Shown: positions 13,075-25,073, counted from the first letter of the stretch. The stretch: 32,000 nucleotides of DNA from Candidatus Nanogingivalaceae bacterium (GCA_015257795.3 CP072208.2:120001-152000); one strand, 5' to 3'. The notes: a model not told the origin generated them from the letters alone. Numbers and translations are program-made.

Positions 13075-14292
13075 ATGAATGAGAATTCTCGAAATGTGGT
13101 AGGAGTAGATATTGGAACTTCAAAAGTTCGTGTTATTATTGCGAACTTTGATAAAGAAGGAATGCCAAATGTTATCGGTGTTGGCTCCGCAGAAAATAAC
13201 GGAATGAAAAAAGGGGTGATAACTAACGCTCAAAGCGTTTATCAAGCTTTAGATAAGGCTTTGCTTCAAGCAGAAAGAATGGCTGGCTATGAAAGTAGTA
13301 GTGCTATATTTAGCGTCAATGGTGCACATATTTTAAGCACAAATACTGACGGAATGATTGCAATCAACTCACCAGATGGCATTGTGGATGAAGAAGATCT
13401 TCAGCGAGTTGAAGAGGTTGCCACAATTGGTAAAATCCCAGCAAATCATCGAGTTTTGGAATTTATTCCATACTACTATAATCTCGACAATCAAGAAGGC
13501 TTAGTTGATCCTTACGGTATGGAAGGTGTTCGCTTAGAGGTTCACGGTAGTGCTATTTCGGCATTAGATTCAAATATAGATAACTTAAGAAATACTGCTG
13601 CAAGATTAGACCTTGACCCAGAACTTTATGTTCCAAGCGTTTTGGCTTCTTCTCGAGCATTGTTGACAGATAACCAAAAAGAAAACGGTGTTGCAGTTGT
13701 TGATCTTGGTGCCTCAACTACTGGAGTTGCAGTTTATGAAGACGGCGCGTTGCGATTAATAGAAGTTATTCCACTTGGTGGAATCAATATTACCAACGAC
13801 CTTGCAATTTGCTTGAAAGTTTCACCAGAAGTCGCCGAAGAAATAAAAATTAAGCATGGTTTTGCTTTCGAGAGAGAAGAGAGTGGCGATATTGTTGTGA
13901 AACATGGTCGCGAACATTATAGCTTTAATACACGAGAAATCGAAGAAGTTATTGAGGCGCGACTTGAAGAAATTTTTGAAGAAGTTAAAAAAGTTCTTAA
14001 AAAATCAGGTTTCGAAAATCAATTACCAAACGGAATTGTACTAGCGGGAGCGGGTTCAAACCTTAAAGGAATTGATGAATACGCGAGAAAACAATTACAG
14101 CTAGCAACTCGAATTGGTAAAAACGGCGTCGAAAGAACTGTTTCACAAGAAGTGAATAAACCAGAGTTTTCAGCTGCGGTTGGCTTGATAATTGAAGCAA
14201 GAAATGTGGTTTTGAGAAGAGAAGAATATCGAGATAATTTTGAGCCTAAGAGCTTTGGATTTTTCGCAAGATTCTTTAAGAAAAAGCGATAA
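13075..14292 (+). CDS. ftsA: Cell division protein FtsA
   Basis: Actin-like ATPase motifs: VGVDIGTSKVRV, VVDLGASTTGVAVY and LAGAGSNLKGI. Lies immediately upstream of ftsZ. Confidence 0.95.
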   Translation: MNENSRNVVGVDIGTSKVRVIIANFDKEGMPNVIGVGSAENNGMKKGVITNAQSVYQALDKALLQAERMAGYESSSAIFSVNGAHILSTNTDGMIAINSPDGIVDEEDLQRVEEVATIGKIPANHRVLEFIPYYYNLDNQEGLVDPYGMEGVRLEVHGSAISALDSNIDNLRNTAARLDLDPELYVPSVLASSRALLTDNQKENGVAVVDLGASTTGVAVYEDGALRLIEVIPLGGINITNDLAICLKVSPEVAEEIKIKHGFAFEREESGDIVVKHGREHYSFNTREIEEVIEARLEEIFEEVKKVLKKSGFENQLPNGIVLAGAGSNLKGIDEYARKQLQLATRIGKNGVERTVSQEVNKPEFSAAVGLIIEARNVVLRREEYRDNFEPKSFGFFARFFKKKR

Positions 14293-14325
14293 AGTGATAT
14301 AATGGGAGTAAATTAAGGAGAAGAA

Positions 14326-15549
14326 ATGCCAGAAATTAAACCGAATGAAGTTGAAACTTTTGCAAAAATTAAAGTTGTAGGAATTGGTGGCGCAGGTGGA
14401 AGCGCTGTTAATCGAATGAAAGATGTTGGCCTAAACAACATTGAATTTATTGCAATGAATACTGACGCTCAAGCGTTGTATAAATCAAAAGCTGATAAAA
14501 AAATTCACCTTGGTCGTGAAACAACAAACGGATTGGGTGCGGGTGCTGACCCTATTGTTGGGGAAAGTGCTGCTCTTGAATCACGCGAAGAAATTCGCGA
14601 AGCTCTTGAAGGCGCAGACATGGTGTTTATCGCTATTGGTGCCGGTGGTGGAACTGGTTCTGGTGCTGGTCATGTTGTGGCTGAAATCGCCCGCGAAATG
14701 GGTATTTTAACGATTGGTGTTGCTACTCGACCATTCGCTTTTGAAGGCGCAAAACGAAAAACTAACGCCGACTGGGCAATTGAAAAGCTTGCAGCCGCAG
14801 TTGATACTTTAATTACAATTCCTAACGATAGGCTTCTTCAAACTGTTGATCGCAACCTTCCTCTTCTTGAGACTTTCAAAATTGCCGACGATGTTCTTCG
14901 TCAAGGAGTTCAAGGTATTTCAGAACTTATTACTGAACATGGTTTGATTAACCTTGACTTTGCTGATGTTAAGTCGATTATGAGTAATGCCGGTTCAGCC
15001 TTGATGGGAATTGGTCGTGCAAGTGGCGATAATCGAGCACAAAAAGCTGCTGAACAAGCTATCGAAAGCCCAATGATTGAAGTTTCAATCGAAGGTGCTC
15101 GAGGTGTATTGTTTAATGTTGCTGGTGGTTATGATATGAGCATGAGTGAAATTCAAGAAGCTGCTGAAATCATTACAGGTGCAGTTGCTCCAGATGCAAA
15201 CATTATCTTTGGTGCAACCTTGAATCCAGATCTTGAAGATGAATTAATCATTACAGTTGTAGCAACTGGTTTTGATCGTGATTATAGCGAACCAGCTCCA
15301 GTTGAATCACTTGAAAACGTTGTTTCGAAAACTTTCAATCTTGAAGACGAACACGCAGATGCTCAAGAAATTGATGAAAAAGTTTCTAGCGCAATTGATA
15401 TGGAACTTAAAAAAGAAGAACCATCTTCAGCCGAAGATTTCACAAGCGATATTGAAACTAAAAATATTTGGGCTCAAGACGAAGAAAAAGACGAAAGTGA
15501 TGTTCCTGCATTTTTGCGCCGCCGAAAACGCAATAAAAAGGAAGACTAA
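14326..15549 (+). CDS. ftsZ: Cell division GTPase FtsZ
   Basis: [17 protein letters not shown], the tubulin signature [16 protein letters not shown], and an acidic linker with a basic C-terminal tail. Confidence 0.97.
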
Positions 15550-16004
15550 TGGAATTTAAGCTCGACGAAACCAAGGTTCTTGAAAGTCGAATGTCGGTCG
15601 ACGGCCAATCTGTGCGCCGTCGCCGAGTTGCTCCAGATGGAACTCGCTTCACAACTTACGAGCGAATCGAAAAACCGCGGATTATTGTTATTAAATCGCA
15701 GGGCGGAAGAGAAGAGTTTAGTCGCGAAAAGCTTAAAAGCTCAATTATTCGTTCGATCGGAAAGTTTATTTCAGATCTTCAAGTTGAAGAAATTATCAAC
15801 CGTGTCGAAAACGAACTTCTTCAAAAATCGAACAAAGTTTCTTCGCACCAGATCGGTGAAACTGTTTTGGCGGTTCTGTTTGAAATGAATAAAGTTGCGT
15901 ATATTCGTTTTGCAAGTGTGTTTAACGGTTTCGAAACAGTTGAAGATTTTGAAGATATTTTAGCAAAAGTTAGAGGTGAAAATGAGAATTGTAGTAGTCT
16001 ATAA
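15549..16004 (+). CDS. nrdR: NrdR-like transcriptional repressor (ATP-cone) lacking zinc-ribbon cysteines
   Basis: TKV..SR......SVRRRR......RFTTYE, an ATP-cone (V.K..G..EEFSREKL) and the C-terminal VAYIRFASVF..F match NrdR. The four Cys of the N-terminal zinc ribbon are absent. The start overlaps the ftsZ stop (TAATG). Confidence 0.8.
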   Translation: MEFKLDETKVLESRMSVDGQSVRRRRVAPDGTRFTTYERIEKPRIIVIKSQGGREEFSREKLKSSIIRSIGKFISDLQVEEIINRVENELLQKSNKVSSHQIGETVLAVLFEMNKVAYIRFASVFNGFETVEDFEDILAKVRGENENCSSL

Positions 16005-16242
16005 AGATTATAGCGATCATGGCCGTGAAGTTCGAGAATATATTGAAGATTTCGAAAGGCAAACGGGCTTAAAAGTCGAAGTTATGGATCCCGATTCTGG
16101 CAGAAATGAGTTTTTCTTGCGAGCTTATGATGTGGTTGAATATCCAACAATTTTAGCAATTACAGATGAAGGACGCCTGCTGCAACAGTGGCGGGGTAAA
16201 CCACTCCCACTTTTTGACGAAGTTGCATATTACGCACGCTAA
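15982..16242 (+). CDS. Small hypothetical protein, possibly a thioredoxin-like fold without CxxC
   Basis: ATG at 15982 after agagg; the track's GTG at 15976 is less likely. Overlaps the nrdR 3' end. ..YPTILAITDEGRLLQQWRGKPLP resembles the C-terminal half of thioredoxin-fold proteins, but no Cys is present. Confidence 0.5.
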   Translation: MRIVVVYKDYSDHGREVREYIEDFERQTGLKVEVMDPDSGRNEFFLRAYDVVEYPTILAITDEGRLLQQWRGKPLPLFDEVAYYAR

Positions 16243-16907
16243 ATTTGAAGCTTGGCGTGTTTTTTTGTGTTTGTGTTTTCTTTTTTTTGGTTGATTATAA
16301 AGTATTTTTAGTTATGCAATAAATATACCTAACAAATACTCAACATGAAATATAGATAAAATAAGTAAAATATAAAAAAAGAGAAAACTCTTTTTTTATA
16401 GTTGAAGAAAATATGGTTTATAAAAAACATAACTATTATGTCATAAATTTTAAAAAACAGTAGACGCTATATATAGTGTGTGCTAAATATAAACTTAAGA
16501 TAACATTATTTTTGTTGTAAATAATACACGCTAAATATAGCGTTTTTTCTTGCTTTAGGTAATTAAAAAAGTTACAATGTAATTATGGCTTCTTAATACG
16601 GTAGGGGGTTAATATAATTAAGTTTTAAACTAGCCTAGGAGATATAATTTAGTTAGTGATGTAGGCTTATTGTAAGTTAATAAATTAAGGAAGGAGATGG
16701 GAGAAGAAACTAAGACATACAGATGGATGTTAAGATCAGGAGAAAGTTGAATATTTTAGCACAAAAATAATATTACTATTTTGCGGAAGAGAGCTTTTAA
16801 ATTCTTATATTTGGAAACTAACAATCTTTCGAAATAATAAAGGTTATGGCCATGGTAAGGGAACTAACTTTACAGAAATATCAATATAAATAATATAAGG
16901 AGGTTTA

Positions 16908-17471
16908 ATGTCGAAAAATCAAGAAAAATTACACTTTGAACTTAAAAATTTTATAGTAAATGTAGGTTGGACTCATAAAATTCATGCGGTTAGAATTGAC
17001 GAGTTAGAAAACTATATTCGATGGTTTAGAATAGCAACAATAATCATTTCTGGAGTTGTCTCTTCTGGCTTAGTTGGAATACTTTGGTTTGATAAATATT
17101 GGATAAAGCTTGTTACAGCATTTTTATCATTAGTCACTACAATAATTTTTAGTATCACTAAGGAGTTTAACTTTGAGGAACGACTAGCTTTGGAGAGGAA
17201 ATCTGTTGATGAGCTTTGGAATCTTAGAGTGTTAGCTGAAATTCTTTTATCTGAGGTGGTTTACAATGTAAAACCATCCAGGGAAATCCAAGAATCTTTC
17301 GAAGAATTAAAACTTAGAAGAGATGCTATTTATAGTCAACTTTCTAATTCGTCTCCTAAAAATGTATCCAAGGCTTCAAAACTAATAAAATCACGAAAAG
17401 ATAATGATTATGAGGAGGATTATAAATACTTTATTTCAAAAGAATTGATGAAAATTAAGGAGGAAGAATAA
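16908..17471 (+). CDS. 2-TM helical-hairpin membrane protein, SLATT-like putative effector
   Basis: Strong SD aaggagg. An N-terminal helix is followed by two adjacent hydrophobic helices (about residues 42-61 and 65-83) joined by a 3-residue turn (DKY). The C-terminus is a charged helical region. This size and architecture match the SLATT domains that accompany SMODS nucleotidyltransferases. AT-rich codon usage. Confidence 0.6.
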   Translation: MSKNQEKLHFELKNFIVNVGWTHKIHAVRIDELENYIRWFRIATIIISGVVSSGLVGILWFDKYWIKLVTAFLSLVTTIIFSITKEFNFEERLALERKSVDELWNLRVLAEILLSEVVYNVKPSREIQESFEELKLRRDAIYSQLSNSSPKNVSKASKLIKSRKDNDYEEDYKYFISKELMKIKEEE

Positions 17472-18793
17472 TGTCTTTATCTAATGATTTTAGAGAATTT
17501 TGCGAAAATGAACTGTCCATGACTGATGAGGAATGGGAAAAATGGGAGAATAGATTAAAAGAGATTACGAAACAACTTAATCGAAAATACTATTCCTTAG
17601 ATGAGCTTGACGATCAAGAAACTGACAACGGTTTGATTGTTGGTAGTATAGGGAGAATGACAGCTGTTCGAAATGTTAGTGATTTTGATTATATTTTTAC
17701 ATTACCATCAGAAGTATATAGACGATTTGATAATTACGAGGGAAATGGGCAATCTGCACTTTTACAAGAAATTAAAAATGAATTATTAAAAAGATATCCT
17801 GATACTAATATAAAAGGAGATGGACAGGTTGTTGTTATTGATTTTTCGGATGGTCGAAAGATTGAGTTAGTTCCAGCTTTTGAACAACCTGATGGTAGTT
17901 TTATATATCCTGATTCTCATAAAGAAGGTTCTTGGGGAACTACTAAGCCAAAGCTTGAAATTGAAAAATGTAAATCTTTAAATTTGAATTTTAACAATCA
18001 TTTCTCTAATTTAACAAGGCTCATGCGACGATGGAAAAATCATACGGGCTTTTCATTTAAGGGGTTGCTGATAGATACTTTGATATCCGATTTTATTGAC
18101 GATAAAGGTATTTCTGAAATATATTACTCTGATTATAATATTCTCTTGAAAGATATTTTTGAATACTTTTCAAATCAAGATAGAAATAGAGAGTATTGGT
18201 ATGCTTTAGGCAGTAATCAAAAGATTTACAATAATGATGGAGCAAAATTTATCAATAAAGCTAAGAAGGCTCTAAAGAGAATAGAAGATGCTTCAGAAGA
18301 GGAACTTACTGAAGTTTATAGACGGCTATTTGGTAGGCAATTCGCCAAATCTAGCTCTACGATAAATAGGGCAGCGAATGAAGAATTTATTGACGAGTTG
18401 TTCAATATTGATATCCAATATAATATTATTTTGGAGTGTGAAATTACTCAAAACGGTTATCGAAGAGCATTTCTTTCTGATTTTTTAAAGAAGGGGTATA
18501 AAATTAAGAGTAAGAAATCTCTCGATTTTAAAATTATAAAATCAAATATTCCAGATGAATACAGAAGAAAAATTAAGTATTATTGGAAAGTCAGAAATAT
18601 TGGAAATGAGGCAATTAAAAGGAAATGTGAGCGTGGTGATATTATTGAAGATGAAATAGAACATCACGAAGATTCTCAGTTTGAAGGAGACCACTATGTT
18701 GAATGTTATGCTGTTTTAGATAATACGGTTATAGCAAGAGATAGAATAACAGTGCCTATTGACCCGTTAAATGGGAAAGACTATGCATTTTAA
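17471..18793 (+). CDS. SMODS/CD-NTase-like nucleotidyltransferase with an extra C-terminal domain (possible AGS-C-type sensor)
   Basis: The start overlaps the upstream stop (TAATG). Pol-beta NTase signature G58-S59-x11-D71-x-D73 (VGSIGRMTAVRNVSDFDYIF). A third acidic strand follows (VVVIDFSDGRKIELVPAF). The segment GSWGTTKPK...LTRLMRRWKNH...KGLLIDTL is typical of OAS/cGAS/SMODS-type enzymes. About 140 further C-terminal residues carry no motif I recognise. Confidence 0.7.
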   Translation: MSLSNDFREFCENELSMTDEEWEKWENRLKEITKQLNRKYYSLDELDDQETDNGLIVGSIGRMTAVRNVSDFDYIFTLPSEVYRRFDNYEGNGQSALLQEIKNELLKRYPDTNIKGDGQVVVIDFSDGRKIELVPAFEQPDGSFIYPDSHKEGSWGTTKPKLEIEKCKSLNLNFNNHFSNLTRLMRRWKNHTGFSFKGLLIDTLISDFIDDKGISEIYYSDYNILLKDIFEYFSNQDRNREYWYALGSNQKIYNNDGAKFINKAKKALKRIEDASEEELTEVYRRLFGRQFAKSSSTINRAANEEFIDELFNIDIQYNIILECEITQNGYRRAFLSDFLKKGYKIKSKKSLDFKIIKSNIPDEYRRKIKYYWKVRNIGNEAIKRKCERGDIIEDEIEHHEDSQFEGDHYVECYAVLDNTVIARDRITVPIDPLNGKDYAF

Positions 18794-18809
18794 ACTTTTC
18801 AATATTCTT

Positions 18810-18844
18810 CCTAAACCCAGCGATTCCGAGTTGCTGGGTTTAGG
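18810..18844 (+). terminator. Strong intrinsic terminator closing the SLATT-NTase operon
   Basis: Perfect 12-bp stem cctaaacccagc / gctgggtttagg with an 11-nt loop, followed by a T/A-rich tract. Confidence 0.75.
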
Positions 18845-18912
18845 TTAAAAAGTTTTTAACTATTCACCTATTAGATCTAATATATCTTTTAGCTTAATTT
18901 ATATTTAAAAGC

Positions 18913-18941
18913 TTGAAAATATCTTTAATTTTTGATAAAAT
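18913..18941 (+). promoter_or_regulatory. Promoter of the ileS leader
   Basis: TTGAAA (18913-18918), a 17-nt spacer and an extended -10 TGaTAAAAT (18933-18941). Confidence 0.5.
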
Positions 18942-18970
18942 AAGCTTATAAAAGCGTTTTATTTTGATAA

Positions 18971-19139
18971 ATGAGCGGCTATCAACCGCGAAGCTCCCAG
19001 AAGAAAGGTTTAACCGATTAGAACTGGGCGGGAAAGCTCCGTGAAAGCTAAAATTAAGGGCTAAAAGAATCACTTCTTTTGGAATCGAGATGGTATCGCC
19101 GAGCTTGCTTGGTTCTCGAATCTAAAAGAGGTGATTTTT
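18971..19139 (+). promoter_or_regulatory. T-box-like riboswitch leader of ileS (Ile AUC specifier)
   Basis: The hairpin gcgg-CUAUCAA-ccgc (18975-18989) displays AUC followed by A in a 7-nt loop and is flanked by GA-rich K-turn-like sequence. An antiterminator-like element spans 19085-19119. It comprises helix tcgaga/tctcga, the 7-nt bulge UGGUAUC (T-box consensus UGGNACC), helix gccgag/cttggt and a tetraloop. T-run at 19135-19139. Confidence 0.6.
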
Positions 19140-19157
19140 AATTTAAAAGGAGGAAGA

Positions 19158-22055
19158 ATGAAATTTCAAGCAAACTCAAGAAGACGGGCAAAAGAATATG
19201 AAGCCGATGTTTTGGCGCGCTGGAAAGCAGAAAATACCTTTAAACAATCAGTTGAAAACCGTAGCGAAGATAACGCTTTTGTGTTTTATGATGGTCCTCC
19301 ATTCATTACTGGTGTGCCACACCACGGAACACTCCTTAGCTCAATCGTAAAAGATGCTGTTCCGCGCTATCAAACAATGAAAGGCAAGCGAGTTGAACGC
19401 CGTTGGGGTTGGGATACGCACGGTTTGCCAGCCGAAAACTTTGTTGAGAAAAAGCTCGGTATCACTTCTCGACACGAAGTTGGTGAAAAAATTTCACTCG
19501 CCGAATATATCACAACTGCGCGCGAGAGCATGGTTTCGAACGCGGCACTTTGGGAAAGCACGATTGATCGCATCGGTCGTTGGGTTGAATTTAAAAATGC
19601 CTACAAAACAATGGATAAAAACTTCATGGAAAGTGTTTGGTGGGCGTTCAAAACTCTTTACGAAAAGGGTAAAATTTATGAAGGTGAACGCGTTTTGATG
19701 TATGATACGGCGTGGGCAACTCCGCTTTCAAAAAGTGAAGTCACAATGGACAACGACGCCTATAAAACTGTGACTGACCCAAGCGTTTTTGTGAAATTCT
19801 GGTTGAAAGATTTCGAAGATGCAGAAGGTTCAAAAGATAAAACTGCAATGCTCGCCTGGACAACAACTCCTTGGACTTTGCCAGCAAATATGGGCCTATT
19901 TGTTAACCCAGATTTCACTTATGCAAAAGTTAAAGTTGGTGATGAATTCTATATTTTAGCAAAAGATTTGCTCGAAAAAGTTTTTGTTGATGAAAAAAAA
20001 CAACCGATTCCTTTCGAAATTGTTAATTTGATTGATGGTTCAGAATTGGTTGGTTTGAGCTACGAACCACTTTTCGAAGATTCGAAATATTCCGGTGAAG
20101 GTGAAGAGAACGCTTATAAAGTTTGGGGCGCAGATTACGTTTCTCTTGAAAGTGGAACGGGAATTGTTCACTCGGCACCAGCATATGGTGAAGAAGACTT
20201 CAACTTTGGTAAAGAATACGGAATTCCAGTTTTCCACGTTTTAGACGAATATGGAAAATATTTGAACGGTGAATTTGCCGGAAAAGATGTTTGGGAATTC
20301 AACAAGCCGCTTGCTAAAATCTTGAAAGAGCGTGGTGTAGTTTGGAAAATTGATTACATTCGTCACGAATACCCACACAATCCACGAACAGGTCACCGAT
20401 TGATGTATCGCGCGCACCCAAGCTGGTTCTTTGATATTCAAGGTCAAAAAGAATTAATGCTTGAGCAAAACGAAAATATCAATTGGTTCCCAGCACACTT
20501 GAAGCATGGTCGTTTCGAAAAGAATCTTGAAGCTGCACCAGATTGGAATCTGTCGCGTGACCGTTTTTGGGCGACTGCAATGCCAGTTTGGAAGTCTGAA
20601 AGTGGTAAAATCCGCGTGGTTGGTTCTTATGCTGAACTTAAAGAATTGAGCGGCGTGGAACTTGAAGACTATCACCGACCTTGGGTCGATGAAATTACTT
20701 TCGAAATTGATGGTGAAAAATATACTCGAATTGATAAAGTGCTTGACTGTTGGTTCGAAAGTGGTTCAATGCCGTTCGCGCAATTCCATTATCCTTTCGA
20801 AAACAAAGAAAAATTTGAAAAGAATTTCCCAGGCGACTTTATTGTTGAATATATTGGTCAGGTTCGTGCATGGTTCTATTATGTTCACGCTGTAAACACT
20901 GCTTTGTTTGGCAAAAACGCCTTCAAAAACGTGATTACAACTGGTGTTGTTGCCGGAAACGATGGCCGCAAGATGAGTAAATCTCTTGGAAACTACACCG
21001 ATCCAAACGAACTAATGGATCAATATTCTGCCGACAGCTTGCGATTCTTGTTGCTTACTAGCCCACTTTTGAACGGTGAAGATTTTGCACTTCACGACAA
21101 GGATGTTTCAGATGTTGCGCGCAAGCTTTCGATGATTTGGAACATGTATGATTTCTTCACAATGTATGCCAGTGTTGACGGTTGGGAATTTAACGGCGAA
21201 CTCAAAGATCCTTCAAAAGATCTAGAAAATCCACTTGATAAATGGATTGTGAGTCGTGTTCACGAGCTTCGAAACGAAATTACAGAAAACATGGACGTTT
21301 ATAACATTCCACGTGCGCTTGAAGGTGTTTTACCATTCCTCGATGATGCTTCGAACTGGTTTGTGCGCCGTTCACGACGTCGTTTCTGGAAGAGTGAAAA
21401 TGGTGCCGATAAACTTCAAGCTTATCAAACGCTTCACTATGTTTTGAGCTATCTTGCGTTGATTCTTGCACCATTTGTACCGTTCTTGGCAGAAGAGCTC
21501 TGGAGTAAAATGGTTAATGATGGTTCAGTTCACTTGAAAGATTGGCCAGAAGCTGGTGAAATTGATAAAGACTTGATTGCTAAAATGGCTGAAGTTCGCG
21601 GTTATGTGAATGAGGCTCTCGCGCTTCGAGCAAAGAACGGCATGAAGATTCGCCAACCGCTTGCTAGTGTGAAAGTTCCAAAAAATGCTGATACTTTCGA
21701 TTTTACGCCAATTCTAATGGAAGAATTGAACGTTAAAGCTGTTGAATATGGTGGCGAAGAAGTTGATTTCGACTTTGAACTAACTCCTGAGCTCCGTGCG
21801 GAAGGTTTAATGCGTGAGATTATTCGCCACATTCAGGCCACACGTAAGAAAGCTGGATTAAATGTTGATGATCGAATTGAACTTAACTTTACATCTGAAA
21901 ATACTGAAGTTCTCGATGCGTTTAAAAAATTTGAACAAGAAATTTCGAAAGAAGTTCTGGCTACAAAAGTTGAAATTTCAGAAGATGAACTTGACTTTAC
22001 TCAAACTGTAAAAGTTGAAGGTTCTGAAGCAAAAATTTCACTCAAAAAAGCTTAG
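19158..22055 (+). CDS. ileS: Isoleucyl-tRNA synthetase (type-2 / eukaryote-like architecture)
   Basis: ATG at 19158 after aaaaggagg; the track's GTG at 19131 lies inside the leader helix. GPPFITGVPHHGTLL is the HIGH region, here HHGT. Also present: the editing domain, WFESGSMPF, KMSKSLGN, and the C-terminal EGLMREIIRHIQATRKKAGLNVDDRI without Cys clusters. Confidence 0.96.
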   Translation: MKFQANSRRRAKEYEADVLARWKAENTFKQSVENRSEDNAFVFYDGPPFITGVPHHGTLLSSIVKDAVPRYQTMKGKRVERRWGWDTHGLPAENFVEKKLGITSRHEVGEKISLAEYITTARESMVSNAALWESTIDRIGRWVEFKNAYKTMDKNFMESVWWAFKTLYEKGKIYEGERVLMYDTAWATPLSKSEVTMDNDAYKTVTDPSVFVKFWLKDFEDAEGSKDKTAMLAWTTTPWTLPANMGLFVNPDFTYAKVKVGDEFYILAKDLLEKVFVDEKKQPIPFEIVNLIDGSELVGLSYEPLFEDSKYSGEGEENAYKVWGADYVSLESGTGIVHSAPAYGEEDFNFGKEYGIPVFHVLDEYGKYLNGEFAGKDVWEFNKPLAKILKERGVVWKIDYIRHEYPHNPRTGHRLMYRAHPSWFFDIQGQKELMLEQNENINWFPAHLKHGRFEKNLEAAPDWNLSRDRFWATAMPVWKSESGKIRVVGSYAELKELSGVELEDYHRPWVDEITFEIDGEKYTRIDKVLDCWFESGSMPFAQFHYPFENKEKFEKNFPGDFIVEYIGQVRAWFYYVHAVNTALFGKNAFKNVITTGVVAGNDGRKMSKSLGNYTDPNELMDQYSADSLRFLLLTSPLLNGEDFALHDKDVSDVARKLSMIWNMYDFFTMYASVDGWEFNGELKDPSKDLENPLDKWIVSRVHELRNEITENMDVYNIPRALEGVLPFLDDASNWFVRRSRRRFWKSENGADKLQAYQTLHYVLSYLALILAPFVPFLAEELWSKMVNDGSVHLKDWPEAGEIDKDLIAKMAEVRGYVNEALALRAKNGMKIRQPLASVKVPKNADTFDFTPILMEELNVKAVEYGGEEVDFDFELTPELRAEGLMREIIRHIQATRKKAGLNVDDRIELNFTSENTEVLDAFKKFEQEISKEVLATKVEISEDELDFTQTVKVEGSEAKISLKKA

Positions 22056-22736: not shown

Positions 22737-25073
22737 ATGAAGAACGGGAATAATCTCAATCCTACACCTGACACAAGTAAGTCTTTTGAGGAAGCTTATG
22801 GTGCTTGGGATACTCTGCAAGAGGAGTTAGCCCAGCAAAAGCGTGAAGAAGAACTTGCAAAGGGTGCAGAAAATTACGAGAAAGCTGTTCGTGATGCGAT
22901 CGATAAAGGTGATCAAACTGCCTTTAACGAGATGGCTGAACGTGACGAGCACTATCGTAAAATGGAAAATGGTGAAAATCGAATAGATGATGAACAGCCA
23001 TACGAATCTTCAGTACTTTCGCAAGAAGAAATGGCACAAGCTGTAAAATCTAGCGATGAAATTCAAAAAATGGATTTGCTTGCTCGTAGAGTCCAAAATG
23101 CTGGAAGCGACGAAGCTAAAGCAAAATACCAACAACAACTAGTTGAACTTTCGAATGATTTTTCGAAAGGTGAAGGTGCTATTGCAGTTAAAGATTGGCA
23201 CGACCAATCTCAATGGGATTTTCGAGAAGCTAGTCAAGCTGAAGGATTCCGCCAAAAAGTTCTTGATTCAATTTGGGAAAAAGCAATGGAAACTCCAAAA
23301 GCTGACGATCAAGAAAATGATAACTCAAATGACAATGATCAAGAACCGCAGGTTGCTGATAATATAGATAATCAACAAGCTCAAAACGTTGATAATATCG
23401 ATGATCAAAAAGTTAGTGTTAACTATAATGTTGAAAATAATATCGACAATCAAAAAGTTAGCGTCAATTATAATGTTGAAAATAACATTGATGATGAGCA
23501 GAAGCCAGAAATGATTGAACAAAACGAGTATGAGAAGAAATTTGACGAAATGCTCGTAAATGGCGCAACAGCTGATGAATTAGCAAGATATCGTCGTTCA
23601 ATTCGCGCAGACTTTATTAATACAGGAGAAATGACACCTGAAAATAAAGAGATGTTAAAGCGTATGGAAAAAGTTGGTTATGCAGTTGGCGATATTGCAC
23701 GAGAAAACGCTAAAGATACAGAAAACAATGCCGAAGAAAAAGTTGGACGATTCCAAAAACTCAAGAAAAAAATTGGTAAAAATATCTTGAAACTTGGCGC
23801 ATTAGCTGGTCTTGGTATAACTGTATTCGGAGTTGGTCGCCAAGCTACTGAGTCGGTTCGTACTAACAATAGTGAACCAAAAGTAGAAAATAAAACTAAG
23901 ACAGAACTTGGTGATGTTTCTGCGACTGAATTCAGCAAACATGCAAGCTTTGATAGCAGCAATGCTCAAGAGCAAGAAAAGAACTTTAATAACGGAAAAT
24001 ACGATTCAGAAAATAACGACTACAATAAAGTTGATCAAAAAGAGAATCAGTATTCGATTGGTACAAGTGTAGCGGAACTTTCAAATGAAGACTTCCAGAA
24101 AAATATGATTGAATCGCACAGTGAAGATGACATTGAATATATGGGACAATTCTTTGTTAACGATTCTGAAGCGGCTCAAAAATATTTGGGAATGTCGAAC
24201 GGCGAAGTTGACAACTTAGTTGATGCTGCACGAAACGGCGACCAATCTGCTTTCCAAAAATTGAATGAAGCTTATTCAAACTATATGGCTGGCGCTAAAG
24301 TTGTTGGTCAAGAAGCTTTGGAAGGTGATTATTACTCAATCTTTGTGAATGGTGATAAAAATTATGCTCACTCTGAAGGTGCGTTTGGCGGAACAGCGCG
24401 TGTTGTTCAATTGAAAAATGGTCAACAAATTTTGATCCGTGACCAATGTAAGCAGTTGATGATGAAGAAGCAGGTGAATGTTCCTAGCGGATGGACAACT
24501 CCAACAATTCCGTTTGGTCAAACTTATACTCCACCCGCTCCAAACACACCACCAACACCGGAAACTCCACCGGAGACACCTCCAAACACTCCACCGGAAA
24601 CTCCACCGGAGACACCTCCAAACACTCCACCGGAAACTCCACCGGAGACACCTCCAAACACTCCACCGGAAACTCCACCGGAGACACCTCCAACACCGGA
24701 AACTAAGTTTACAGAAGATCAGTCAATCTATAACTACGGCGGCTCTGTAACTAAAATGGATGCTGGAGAATTAACTCAAGCTCCAACTGCGGCAGAAGAA
24801 GCTGGTAAGGCGACTTATGATGTAGCACCAGGTGCTGAAACTACGATTGCTGCTGAAGGTATAGATAGTAGTATCGATAACTCAAATATAGCTAACCAAG
24901 CTAGTCAGTATGGTGGTGAAATAACTACTGATCAAGCTGCAGCACAAGCTGCGCAACAAGTTGAGGCTTCAGCAAATGCGCAAGCTAATGCTCAAGATCA
25001 AAATCAGTCTGTAAATATCGGTGGTCAGAATATTTCATATGATGATATTCAAAGAGCACAGAACGGGCAATAA
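22737..25073 (+). CDS. Large repeat-containing single-pass membrane or surface protein
   Basis: No signal peptide. An acidic N-terminal region of about 350 aa contains NID(N/D)QKVSVNYNVEN repeats. One TM segment (ILKLGALAGLGITVFGVG, nt about 23781-23840) follows. The extracytoplasmic region carries a (PETPPETPPNTP)n linker and a Q/A/N-rich tail. Confidence 0.7.
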   Translation: MKNGNNLNPTPDTSKSFEEAYGAWDTLQEELAQQKREEELAKGAENYEKAVRDAIDKGDQTAFNEMAERDEHYRKMENGENRIDDEQPYESSVLSQEEMAQAVKSSDEIQKMDLLARRVQNAGSDEAKAKYQQQLVELSNDFSKGEGAIAVKDWHDQSQWDFREASQAEGFRQKVLDSIWEKAMETPKADDQENDNSNDNDQEPQVADNIDNQQAQNVDNIDDQKVSVNYNVENNIDNQKVSVNYNVENNIDDEQKPEMIEQNEYEKKFDEMLVNGATADELARYRRSIRADFINTGEMTPENKEMLKRMEKVGYAVGDIARENAKDTENNAEEKVGRFQKLKKKIGKNILKLGALAGLGITVFGVGRQATESVRTNNSEPKVENKTKTELGDVSATEFSKHASFDSSNAQEQEKNFNNGKYDSENNDYNKVDQKENQYSIGTSVAELSNEDFQKNMIESHSEDDIEYMGQFFVNDSEAAQKYLGMSNGEVDNLVDAARNGDQSAFQKLNEAYSNYMAGAKVVGQEALEGDYYSIFVNGDKNYAHSEGAFGGTARVVQLKNGQQILIRDQCKQLMMKKQVNVPSGWTTPTIPFGQTYTPPAPNTPPTPETPPETPPNTPPETPPETPPNTPPETPPETPPNTPPETPPETPPTPETKFTEDQSIYNYGGSVTKMDAGELTQAPTAAEEAGKATYDVAPGAETTIAAEGIDSSIDNSNIANQASQYGGEITTDQAAAQAAQQVEASANAQANAQDQNQSVNIGGQNISYDDIQRAQNGQ
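23394..23483 (+). repeat. Two tandem 45-nt in-frame repeats (NID[D/N]QKVSVNYNVEN)
   Basis: 23394-23438 and 23439-23483 encode near-identical 15-aa units. The DNA differs mostly at synonymous sites (gttagtgttaactat vs gttagcgtcaattat). Confidence 0.85.
24558..24692 (+). repeat. Perfect 36-nt tandem repeat, about 3.75 copies (PETPPETPPNTP)
   Basis: ccggaaactccaccggagacacctccaaacactcca is repeated identically at 24558, 24594 and 24630. A 27-nt partial copy lies at 24666-24692. Degenerate P/T-rich sequence flanks the tract. Confidence 0.9.

Follow-up and report, generated by a model that had tools for sequence, protein, structure and literature searches.

Positions 16908-18844 of the window, a 32,000-nt stretch of the genome of Candidatus Nanogingivalaceae bacterium (GCA_015257795.3 CP072208.2:120001-152000), carry a two-gene cassette that is read here as a Type I cyclic-oligonucleotide-based antiphage signalling system (CBASS), acquired by clade G6 Saccharibacteria from a Streptococcus-like donor and located in a hotspot of defence exchange (probability about 0.78). 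The first open reading frame (ORF1, 16908-17471, plus strand) encodes a SLATT_4 two-transmembrane (2TM) effector of 187 amino acids, identified by family models and a full-length PADLOC match. The second (ORF2, 17471-18793, plus strand) encodes a CBASS cyclase of 440 amino acids, identified by family models and predicted fold, in which an SMODS domain, that is a cGAS/DncV-like nucleotidyltransferase (CD-NTase), is joined to an AGS-C domain. The cassette is assigned to Type I because an SMODS cyclase is combined with a 2TM effector and no Cap2/Cap3 (E1/E2/JAB) or HORMA/TRIP13 genes are found among the neighbours, which are ftsA, ftsZ, nrdR, a conserved gene of 86 amino acids and ileS; the slot itself holds the two ORFs only. 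Membership of CBASS is thus given by the cyclase model, the catalytic set, the class of the adjacent effector and the Type I gene content, while the function, phage-triggered nucleotide synthesis and phage protection, would be expected by analogy with homologues. The initial annotation had proposed a candidate second-messenger module of a CD-NTase and a membrane effector, and this is supported by family, fold and linkage. Literature on Saccharibacteria or Patescibacteria together with CBASS or defence finders gave no prior account of the locus, an absence that is not proof.

The profile searches suggested with that proposal gave matches to SLATT_4, SMODS and AGS_C and none to MNT. Residues 1-171 of gene 2 match Pfam SMODS (E 8e-38, 130.6 bits, cutoff 26.5) and residues 303-430 match Pfam AGS_C (PF18134; E 2.6e-35, 121.7 bits, cutoff 26.7). 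Both genes also gave full-length matches to defence models, for gene 2 the PADLOC CBASS Cyclase model PDLC00796 over residues 1-431 at 489 bits. The AlphaFold2 model of gene 2 has a mean predicted local distance difference test score (pLDDT) of 91 and a predicted TM-score of 0.89. When it was searched with Foldseek the top 50 PDB matches were all CD-NTases with probability 1.00, among them CdnD, CdnC, CdnB, CdnE, CdnG and DncV, with target-normalised TM-scores up to 0.75, and the sequence matches of gene 2 to PDB entries were likewise all CD-NTases. The predicted fold is of the cGAS/DncV-like type. A Pycsar assignment was considered and rejected, as gene 2 matches SMODS/CD-NTase models and CD-NTase folds only; the AGS-C domain is common to some PycC enzymes too (10.1101/2023.05.21.541620).

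The pol-beta catalytic motif G58-S59...D71-x-D73 (17642-17689, plus strand), with the eleven-residue spacing described earlier, is invariant in 30 homologues of 45-84% identity. The helix pattern reported with it is found as well, W155/T158/P160 and R186/W188/K189 being invariant in the same 30 sequences. A third acidic strand had also been claimed. An acidic residue is present, but its position is most likely E132 in the motif IELVPAF (17864-17866, plus strand), probably the third metal-binding residue, and probably not D124 or D127. E132 is invariant in the 30 homologues and aligned with the third Asp of Pseudomonas aeruginosa CdnD (6p82), the one in VDAVPAF.

The C-terminal domain of the cyclase, previously noted as present and uncharacterised, is the AGS-C domain of residues 303-430 (18377-18760, plus strand). 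It is predicted to be a beta-sandwich, with beta strands at residues 319-427 of the AlphaFold2 model. No solved structure in the PDB matched this part, the best PDB stretches reaching profile position 286 at most. AGS-C is the fastest-evolving part of the cassette, and its divergence from the Streptococcus copy is about double that of the remaining cyclase. In the comparison with a contig of the S. mitis group (L101), differences are seen at 37 of the 145 residues from position 296 to the end and at 38 of the 295 that precede it (Fisher p = 0.0018), and the rate of nonsynonymous substitution (dN) is 0.157 in AGS-C and 0.060 in the catalytic core. Clusters of changes occur at residues 341-368 and 390-397. 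Such a rapid change fits a recognition surface.

Gene 1 had been described as a SLATT-like protein with two transmembrane segments, and it clears the cutoffs of both Pfam SLATT_4 (PF18186; E 2.6e-23, 83 bits, cutoff 27) and NCBIfam SLATT_4 (NF033632; 109.7 bits, cutoff 55). The PADLOC CBASS Effector 2TM model PDLC00690 matches it end to end (1-187 of 187, 303 bits). The transmembrane hairpin (17025-17159, plus strand) comprises residues ~40-61 and ~66-84 with a turn of four residues, DKYW, and two hydrophobic segments are seen in the hydropathy profile (Kyte-Doolittle, 19-residue window), which exceeds 1.6 around residues 49-53 and 73-75. The AlphaFold2 model is all-helical (pLDDT 85), with continuous helices at 3-60 and 64-87. 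Hydropathy and predicted model together give the arrangement that defines SLATT proteins, a pair of neighbouring transmembrane helices with soluble helices on either side. Outside the hairpin the invariant positions are W21-T-H-K-I25, R107, D165 and Y168, and N166, D167, D171, Y172 and F175 are nearly so; within the hairpin G54 is invariant. No recognisable receptor domain was found in this protein, which is predicted to be entirely helical.

Three departures from canonical CBASS had been claimed: the effector gene comes first, the effector lacks a SAVED/CARF-type domain and the cyclase has an additional C-terminal domain. All three are normal traits of an already catalogued Type I subtype with SLATT effector and AGS-C cyclase. 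They are not departures because AGS-C is common, SLATT is established and an operon with SLATT_4 first has been reported to be anti-phage; AGS-C is present on about 40% of Type I CBASS cyclases, and SLATT proteins are an established class of effector (10.1101/2023.05.21.541620).

The linkage of the two genes is not confined to this genome. Co-occurrence, which had been put forward as a check, was examined in 15 loci with unrelated flanks, and SLATT_4 adjoins the cyclase in 14 of them, in both gene orders. Among these loci are G6, the S. mitis group (two), Enterococcus faecalis, other metagenomic contexts, the Lactococcus plasmid pUCCL631C and IMG/VR viral contigs. The SLATT gene is first where the cyclase carries AGS-C, and the cyclase is first in relatives that lack it; in L118-L121 and L123 the cyclases are without AGS-C and the SLATT gene is downstream, so that the order flips with the loss of AGS-C. 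Two further observations were made in these loci. In E. faecalis a second SMODS gene, split into parts of 88 and 198 amino acids (L110:4327-5217), follows the 3' end of the SLATT_4 and SMODS-AGS_C pair and is probably a decayed duplicate cyclase. In two IMG/VR viral contigs (L116:3383-4219 and L117:4485-5321, 41% identity) an extra short SMODS gene is found upstream of the pair.

The cassette is part of a strain-variable slot (16272-18906, unstranded) that lies between the conserved 86-amino-acid gene after nrdR and the leader of ileS. The location between ftsA-ftsZ-nrdR and ileS given earlier is correct, with the addition that the conserved gene also separates nrdR from the slot. The window is 100% identical to CP076102 (L100), the complete 691,584-bp genome of JB003, a clade G6 Saccharibacteria strain found in human saliva (PMC8386444). 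The edges of the slot were set by a blastn comparison of window positions 15901-19400 with nine other G6 loci; where a strain has different cargo, the left-hand homology ends at about 16264-16271 and the right-hand homology starts again at 18904-18907. The GC content of the slot is 0.29, compared with 0.37 in the rest of the window.

The strains compared, all from public assemblies, have an identical NrdR and the same flanks (ftsA-ftsZ-nrdR-86 aa...ileS). Their slots contain the SLATT and cyclase pair, an Excalibur-domain gene with a gene of 169 amino acids, a gene of 199 amino acids with a DUF4145 gene, or single unknown genes. One strain (L099, SAMN00037537, a Human Microbiome Project sample) has a complete type II CRISPR locus in the slot (L099:8958-14600), with Cas9 (1103 amino acids), Cas1, Cas2 and an array, the array having a period of 66 nt at ~13490-14580. 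In the paper on the G6 genomes, none of those examined was reported to have CRISPR elements (PMC8386444). The sister species (L011, 92% FtsZ identity) has other small genes at this position.

A second, small insertion site is found directly upstream of the ileS start (ATG at 19158), at ~19145-19155, and is empty in the window. In other loci (L092:9842-10525, L096, L098, L009:11696-12625 and L011:13265-14224) it contains either a DUF4145 gene that corresponds to PADLOC PD-T7-4 (204 bits) or a DUF5655 gene that corresponds to the PADLOC candidate PDC-S18 (275 bits). The interval between nrdR and ileS is a defence hotspot. Variation between close relatives had been proposed as a check, and since the pair is variably present among strains with identical NrdR it is not a housekeeping function. 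The exact cyclase was indexed in 166 blocks and the exact NrdR in 2772, a rough comparison which suggests that the CBASS cassette is a minority allele. A scan of genome contigs based on FtsZ found one close relative only, the sister species L011, and is uninformative on CBASS across Saccharibacteria.

The gene at the left border of the slot (15976-16242, 86-88 amino acids, no Pfam match) overlaps the end of nrdR; all strains and the sister species have it. The slot opens on the left (16272-16730) with ~460 nt of AT-rich DNA that has no ORF of at least 34 amino acids. It is unlike the streptococcal island (score 26, shuffle mean 25.8) and unlike the other slot alleles, and it gave no credible Rfam match, the two hits being far below the gathering scores. 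It contains a near-perfect palindrome of 16 nt (16368-16403), and an imperfect copy of 23 nt (16514-16536, 78%) of positions 16222-16244, the last 21 nt of the 86-amino-acid gene plus 2 nt; these may be a recombination scar. Downstream of ileS another variable gene was seen (22737-25073), which encodes 778 amino acids without Pfam match and ranges from 749 to 778 amino acids between strains (L001-L010, L091-L100). In some strains only a gene of 105 amino acids is called at this position, and the next gene carries a CLIPPER domain. The variable gene may encode a surface protein that differs between strains.

Both proteins of the cassette have their closest named homologues in Streptococcus pneumoniae, S. 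mitis and S. gordonii (SLATT 82-94% and cyclase 77-88% identity). blastn aligned the cassette DNA with the S. mitis-group contig L101 at 90.6% identity over 1889 nt and with a second contig of this group, L107, at 82.9% over 2020 nt, the homology to L107 running through the hairpin downstream of the cyclase to 18904, the right boundary of the slot. The streptococcal pair is preceded by restriction-modification genes, two for C5 methylases and one for a BpuJI-like endonuclease, and then, directly upstream of the cassette, by an intact Abi_C gene that matches PADLOC AbiJ. In the window only a decayed, frameshifted relic of the 3' half of an Abi_C/AbiJ-like gene is found at this place (16730-16880, plus strand), and no ORF of at least 20 amino acids is left on that strand. 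The relic was recovered by blastn (16730-16831 against L107 5108-5210, 75%; 16819-16877 against L101 5275-5332, 86%), by tblastn, which returned the motif RNxKGxGHGKGTNFTE at E 1e-8, and by local alignment (score 81, shuffle mean 22.7, sd 2.9). The identity to the streptococcal cassette and the Abi relic together point to an island in a Streptococcus-like donor as the source of the G6 cassette.

The transfer need not have been a single event. Synonymous divergence from L101:5438-7323 is 0.09 in the SLATT gene and 0.33 in the cyclase gene, which suggests a mosaic cassette formed by recombination among cassette variants rather than by one clean transfer. As to the vehicle, the phage collection gave no match and plasmids only partial matches of 66-71%; the relatives in IMG/VR have at most 49% identity, or at most 41% for near-full-length matches. 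No flanking direct or inverted repeats that would suggest an integrase site were found, and the slot has no mobile-element backbone. Baker 2021 described a different G6 element of ~10 kb with ~95% homology to S. salivarius and speculated that streptococci may be the hosts (PMC8386444). The present cassette could tentatively be regarded as a second, independent transfer from Streptococcus to G6, with the uncultured G6 living attached to streptococci and stocking its hotspot from the host pool, although this extension is rather doubtful. If it were true, the epibiont would be running an abortive-infection system adapted to the phages of streptococci or to cues held in common.

The two genes are arranged for coupled expression. 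The stop of ORF1 and the start of ORF2 overlap in TAATG (17469-17473), giving a gene overlap of 1 nt, and adjacency or overlap of SLATT_4 and cyclase is also kept in the Streptococcus, Enterococcus and Lactococcus copies. The effector gene has a Shine-Dalgarno sequence AAGGAGG (16897-16903, plus strand) 4 nt 5' of the ATG at 16908, and the cyclase gene has a second AAGGAGG (17457-17463, plus strand) within the 3' end of the effector gene. The GC content of the two genes is 0.31, compared with 0.37 in the rest of the window, and in G6 and Streptococcus alike the flanks are richer in GC than the cassette (0.36-0.43 against 0.31). The description of two AT-rich, translationally coupled ORFs with a strong Shine-Dalgarno sequence thus holds. 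Directly 5' of the first Shine-Dalgarno sequence a weak candidate for a sigma-70-like promoter, TTTACA-16-TAATAT, can be seen (16869-16896, plus strand); it has 9 of 12 consensus matches, and the AT-rich region gives 23 such matches against 14.6 expected.

A stable hairpin with a 16-pair stem (18810-18844, plus strand) lies 3' of the cyclase stop codon (-24.4 kcal/mol, z = -6.0, none of 200 dinucleotide shuffles as stable). It had been annotated as the terminator of the cassette. The hairpin itself stands; as a terminator it is plausible and no firmer than that, as the T-run which follows is broken (TTAAAAAGTTTTT) and the consensus terminator scan did not pick it out.

The way in which the cassette would act can be put together from these features and from related systems. 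Both genes would be co-transcribed from the putative promoter and translationally coupled by the signals seen at the junction. The CD-NTase would be inactive until infection, and its Ig-like AGS-C domain may help to choose the phage cue that triggers it, as can be supposed from Type I screens in which phages escaped through mutations in their prohead protease or scaffold and a correlation was seen between AGS-C and the range of phages (10.1101/2023.05.21.541620). The active site, of which the residues G58-S59, D71, D73 and E132 are observed, would then make a cyclic di- or trinucleotide from nucleoside triphosphates. This nucleotide would act on SLATT_4, with its 2TM hairpin and its cytoplasmic helices carrying invariant motifs, which would oligomerise and breach the membrane so that the cell dies before phage release (abortive infection).

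Several points weigh against the Type I CBASS assignment or parts of it. The effector step is drawn by analogy. Neither by sequence nor by fold did gene 1 match a solved structure, and no SLATT structure or ligand was found. Gene 2 falls under the equivalog cutoffs of NCBIfam CBASS_cyclase_a and CBASS_cyclase_b (99 and 64 bits, cutoff 200), and the signals for its CD-NTase clade are in conflict, the nearest solved sequences belonging to clades D and C (profile E 1.6e-13 to 4e-6) and the best target-normalised TM-score being that of BfCdnB (0.75). The consensus scan backs no canonical promoter or terminator for the cassette. The ratio of nonsynonymous to synonymous substitution (dN/dS, Nei-Gojobori, against streptococcal copies) is 0.15-0.30 in the SLATT gene, 0.17-0.27 in the cyclase gene and 0.15-0.39 across every segment of the cassette; these values are well below 1 and both genes therefore look maintained, but they come from a comparison between Saccharibacteria and Streptococcus and are not in themselves proof of selection after the transfer.

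The last point is relevant to the best surviving alternative, namely that the pair is a recently transferred passenger, a functional CBASS in streptococci which is silent or useless in Saccharibacteria and awaits decay. The Abi_C gene from the donor side is already reduced to a relic of ~150 nt, the cassette appears to be a minority allele (166 blocks against 2772 for NrdR) and its GC content of 0.31 is unameliorated. Both ORFs are nevertheless intact and have strong Shine-Dalgarno sequences while the adjacent Abi gene has decayed, which argues for selective retention. An identical intact cyclase is present on contigs of at least 24 assemblies from different oral metagenome samples, dN/dS is low as given above, and the slots of sister strains hold other intact defence systems. 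A mere passenger is thus considered unlikely.

Two other explanations, each of them very improbable, concern the function of the pair. In the first, signalling would be inverse, of the guard type seen in Panoptes, where a constitutive nucleotide holds the 2TM protein closed and its depletion by a phage sponge or nuclease frees the effector. Minimal two-gene systems of a cyclase and a 2TM effector are reported to work so (PMC12657230), and the sequence is silent on whether the ligand activates or inhibits SLATT_4. The Panoptes cyclases, however, are of the Cas10-palm type (mCpol) and not pol-beta SMODS enzymes; their effectors are described as '2TM', and the Panoptes paper was not among the papers found to use the term SLATT. 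Type I operons with AGS-C and SLATT6 are reported to restrict many phages, and escape mutations in capsid-assembly proteins fit activation by a phage cue (10.1101/2023.05.21.541620). Membership of Panoptes proper was rejected on the SMODS catalytic domain, although the profile libraries may predate Panoptes models.

In the second, the genes would be a toxic pair without a role in defence, either an addiction or stabilisation module of the island or a membrane-active factor in the interaction between epibiont and host. CBASS is intrinsically toxic and some operons proved impossible to maintain in the hosts used for testing (10.1101/2023.05.21.541620; PMC11381338), and the biology and host of G6 are not known (PMC8386444). 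This idea is opposed by the lack of a signal peptide on SLATT_4 and of a secretion partner gene nearby, by the occurrence of the same cassette in free-living Bacillota, plasmids, viral contigs and defence-island contexts, and by a slot without a mobile-element backbone to stabilise. Finally, a non-signalling nucleotidyltransferase (MNT antitoxin or aminoglycoside type) beside an unrelated membrane protein, for which the generic pol-beta GS...DxD motif common to those families is all that can be cited, is refuted by the absence of any such family at E <=1 in Pfam, NCBIfam and PADLOC and of a HEPN neighbour, by the uniformly CD-NTase sequence and fold matches in the PDB, by the SLATT_4 thresholds that gene 1 clears and by the tight linkage across taxa.

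Among known systems, the Type I CBASS of the Lactococcus plasmid pUCCL631C (pUCCL631_167 and pUCCL631_168), the closest one with tested activity, has the same order with SLATT_4 first, an overlapping stop and start and the same domains. The cyclases share 47% and the SLATT proteins 34% identity in alignments of nearly full length. The Lactococcus proteins have 190 (SLATT) and 408 (nucleotidyltransferase with AGS-C) amino acids and those of the window 187 and 440, and the former pair is borne on a plasmid in free-living Bacillota whereas the latter is in a chromosomal slot of G6. The system of pUCCL631C is reported to be active against lactococcal phages with an abortive-infection-like phenotype (PMC11381338). 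Still closer is the cassette of Streptococcus mitis, S. pneumoniae and S. gordonii, in which gene lengths and overlap are identical to those of the window; it differs in being preceded by the intact AbiJ-like Abi_C gene and the restriction-modification system with two methylases, of which the window retains only the Abi relic.

The gammaproteobacterial EcCdnF04-SLATT6 and EcCdnF05-SLATT6 operons and the AGS-C-bearing CD-NTases of clades B, F, G and H resemble the window pair in being Type I, with a SLATT-class effector and an Ig-like AGS-C domain on the cyclase; the two SLATT6 operons differ from the SLATT_4 cassette in the class of SLATT. EcCdnF04-SLATT6 and AGS-C-bearing operons are reported to protect Escherichia coli, the SLATT6 operons strongly so (Richmond-Buccola et al., 10.1101/2023.05.21.541620). 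Thoeris type VII has, like the window, a SLATT-domain membrane effector, ThsH, together with a signal-producing enzyme, and for ThsH a ligand-driven oligomerisation with predicted charged pockets between protomers has been proposed (10.64898/2025.12.03.692087). The signal of ThsH is cyclic ADP-ribose from a TIR protein, whereas the enzyme in the window is a CD-NTase. Cap15 and other transmembrane effectors of CBASS are small membrane proteins that disrupt the membrane and so kill the cell when a CBASS nucleotide binds to them. Cap15 carries a recognisable C-terminal beta-barrel that binds the ligand; the SLATT_4 protein of the window differs from it in being all-helical in the AlphaFold2 model and without a recognisable receptor domain.

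For CBASS as such the cassette is nothing categorically new but an ordinary Type I operon with a SLATT effector and an AGS-C cyclase. Its interest lies in the host, an epibiont of 0.69 Mb that keeps a hotspot between nrdR and ileS, in which strains alternate between CBASS and CRISPR-Cas9 and the site at ileS takes up PD-T7-4 or PDC-S18. The recent transfer between phyla of at least one of these cargos supports the published guess of an association between G6 and streptococci. It is also a compact and naturally minimal SLATT_4/AGS-C cassette that can be tested in streptococcal or lactococcal hosts.

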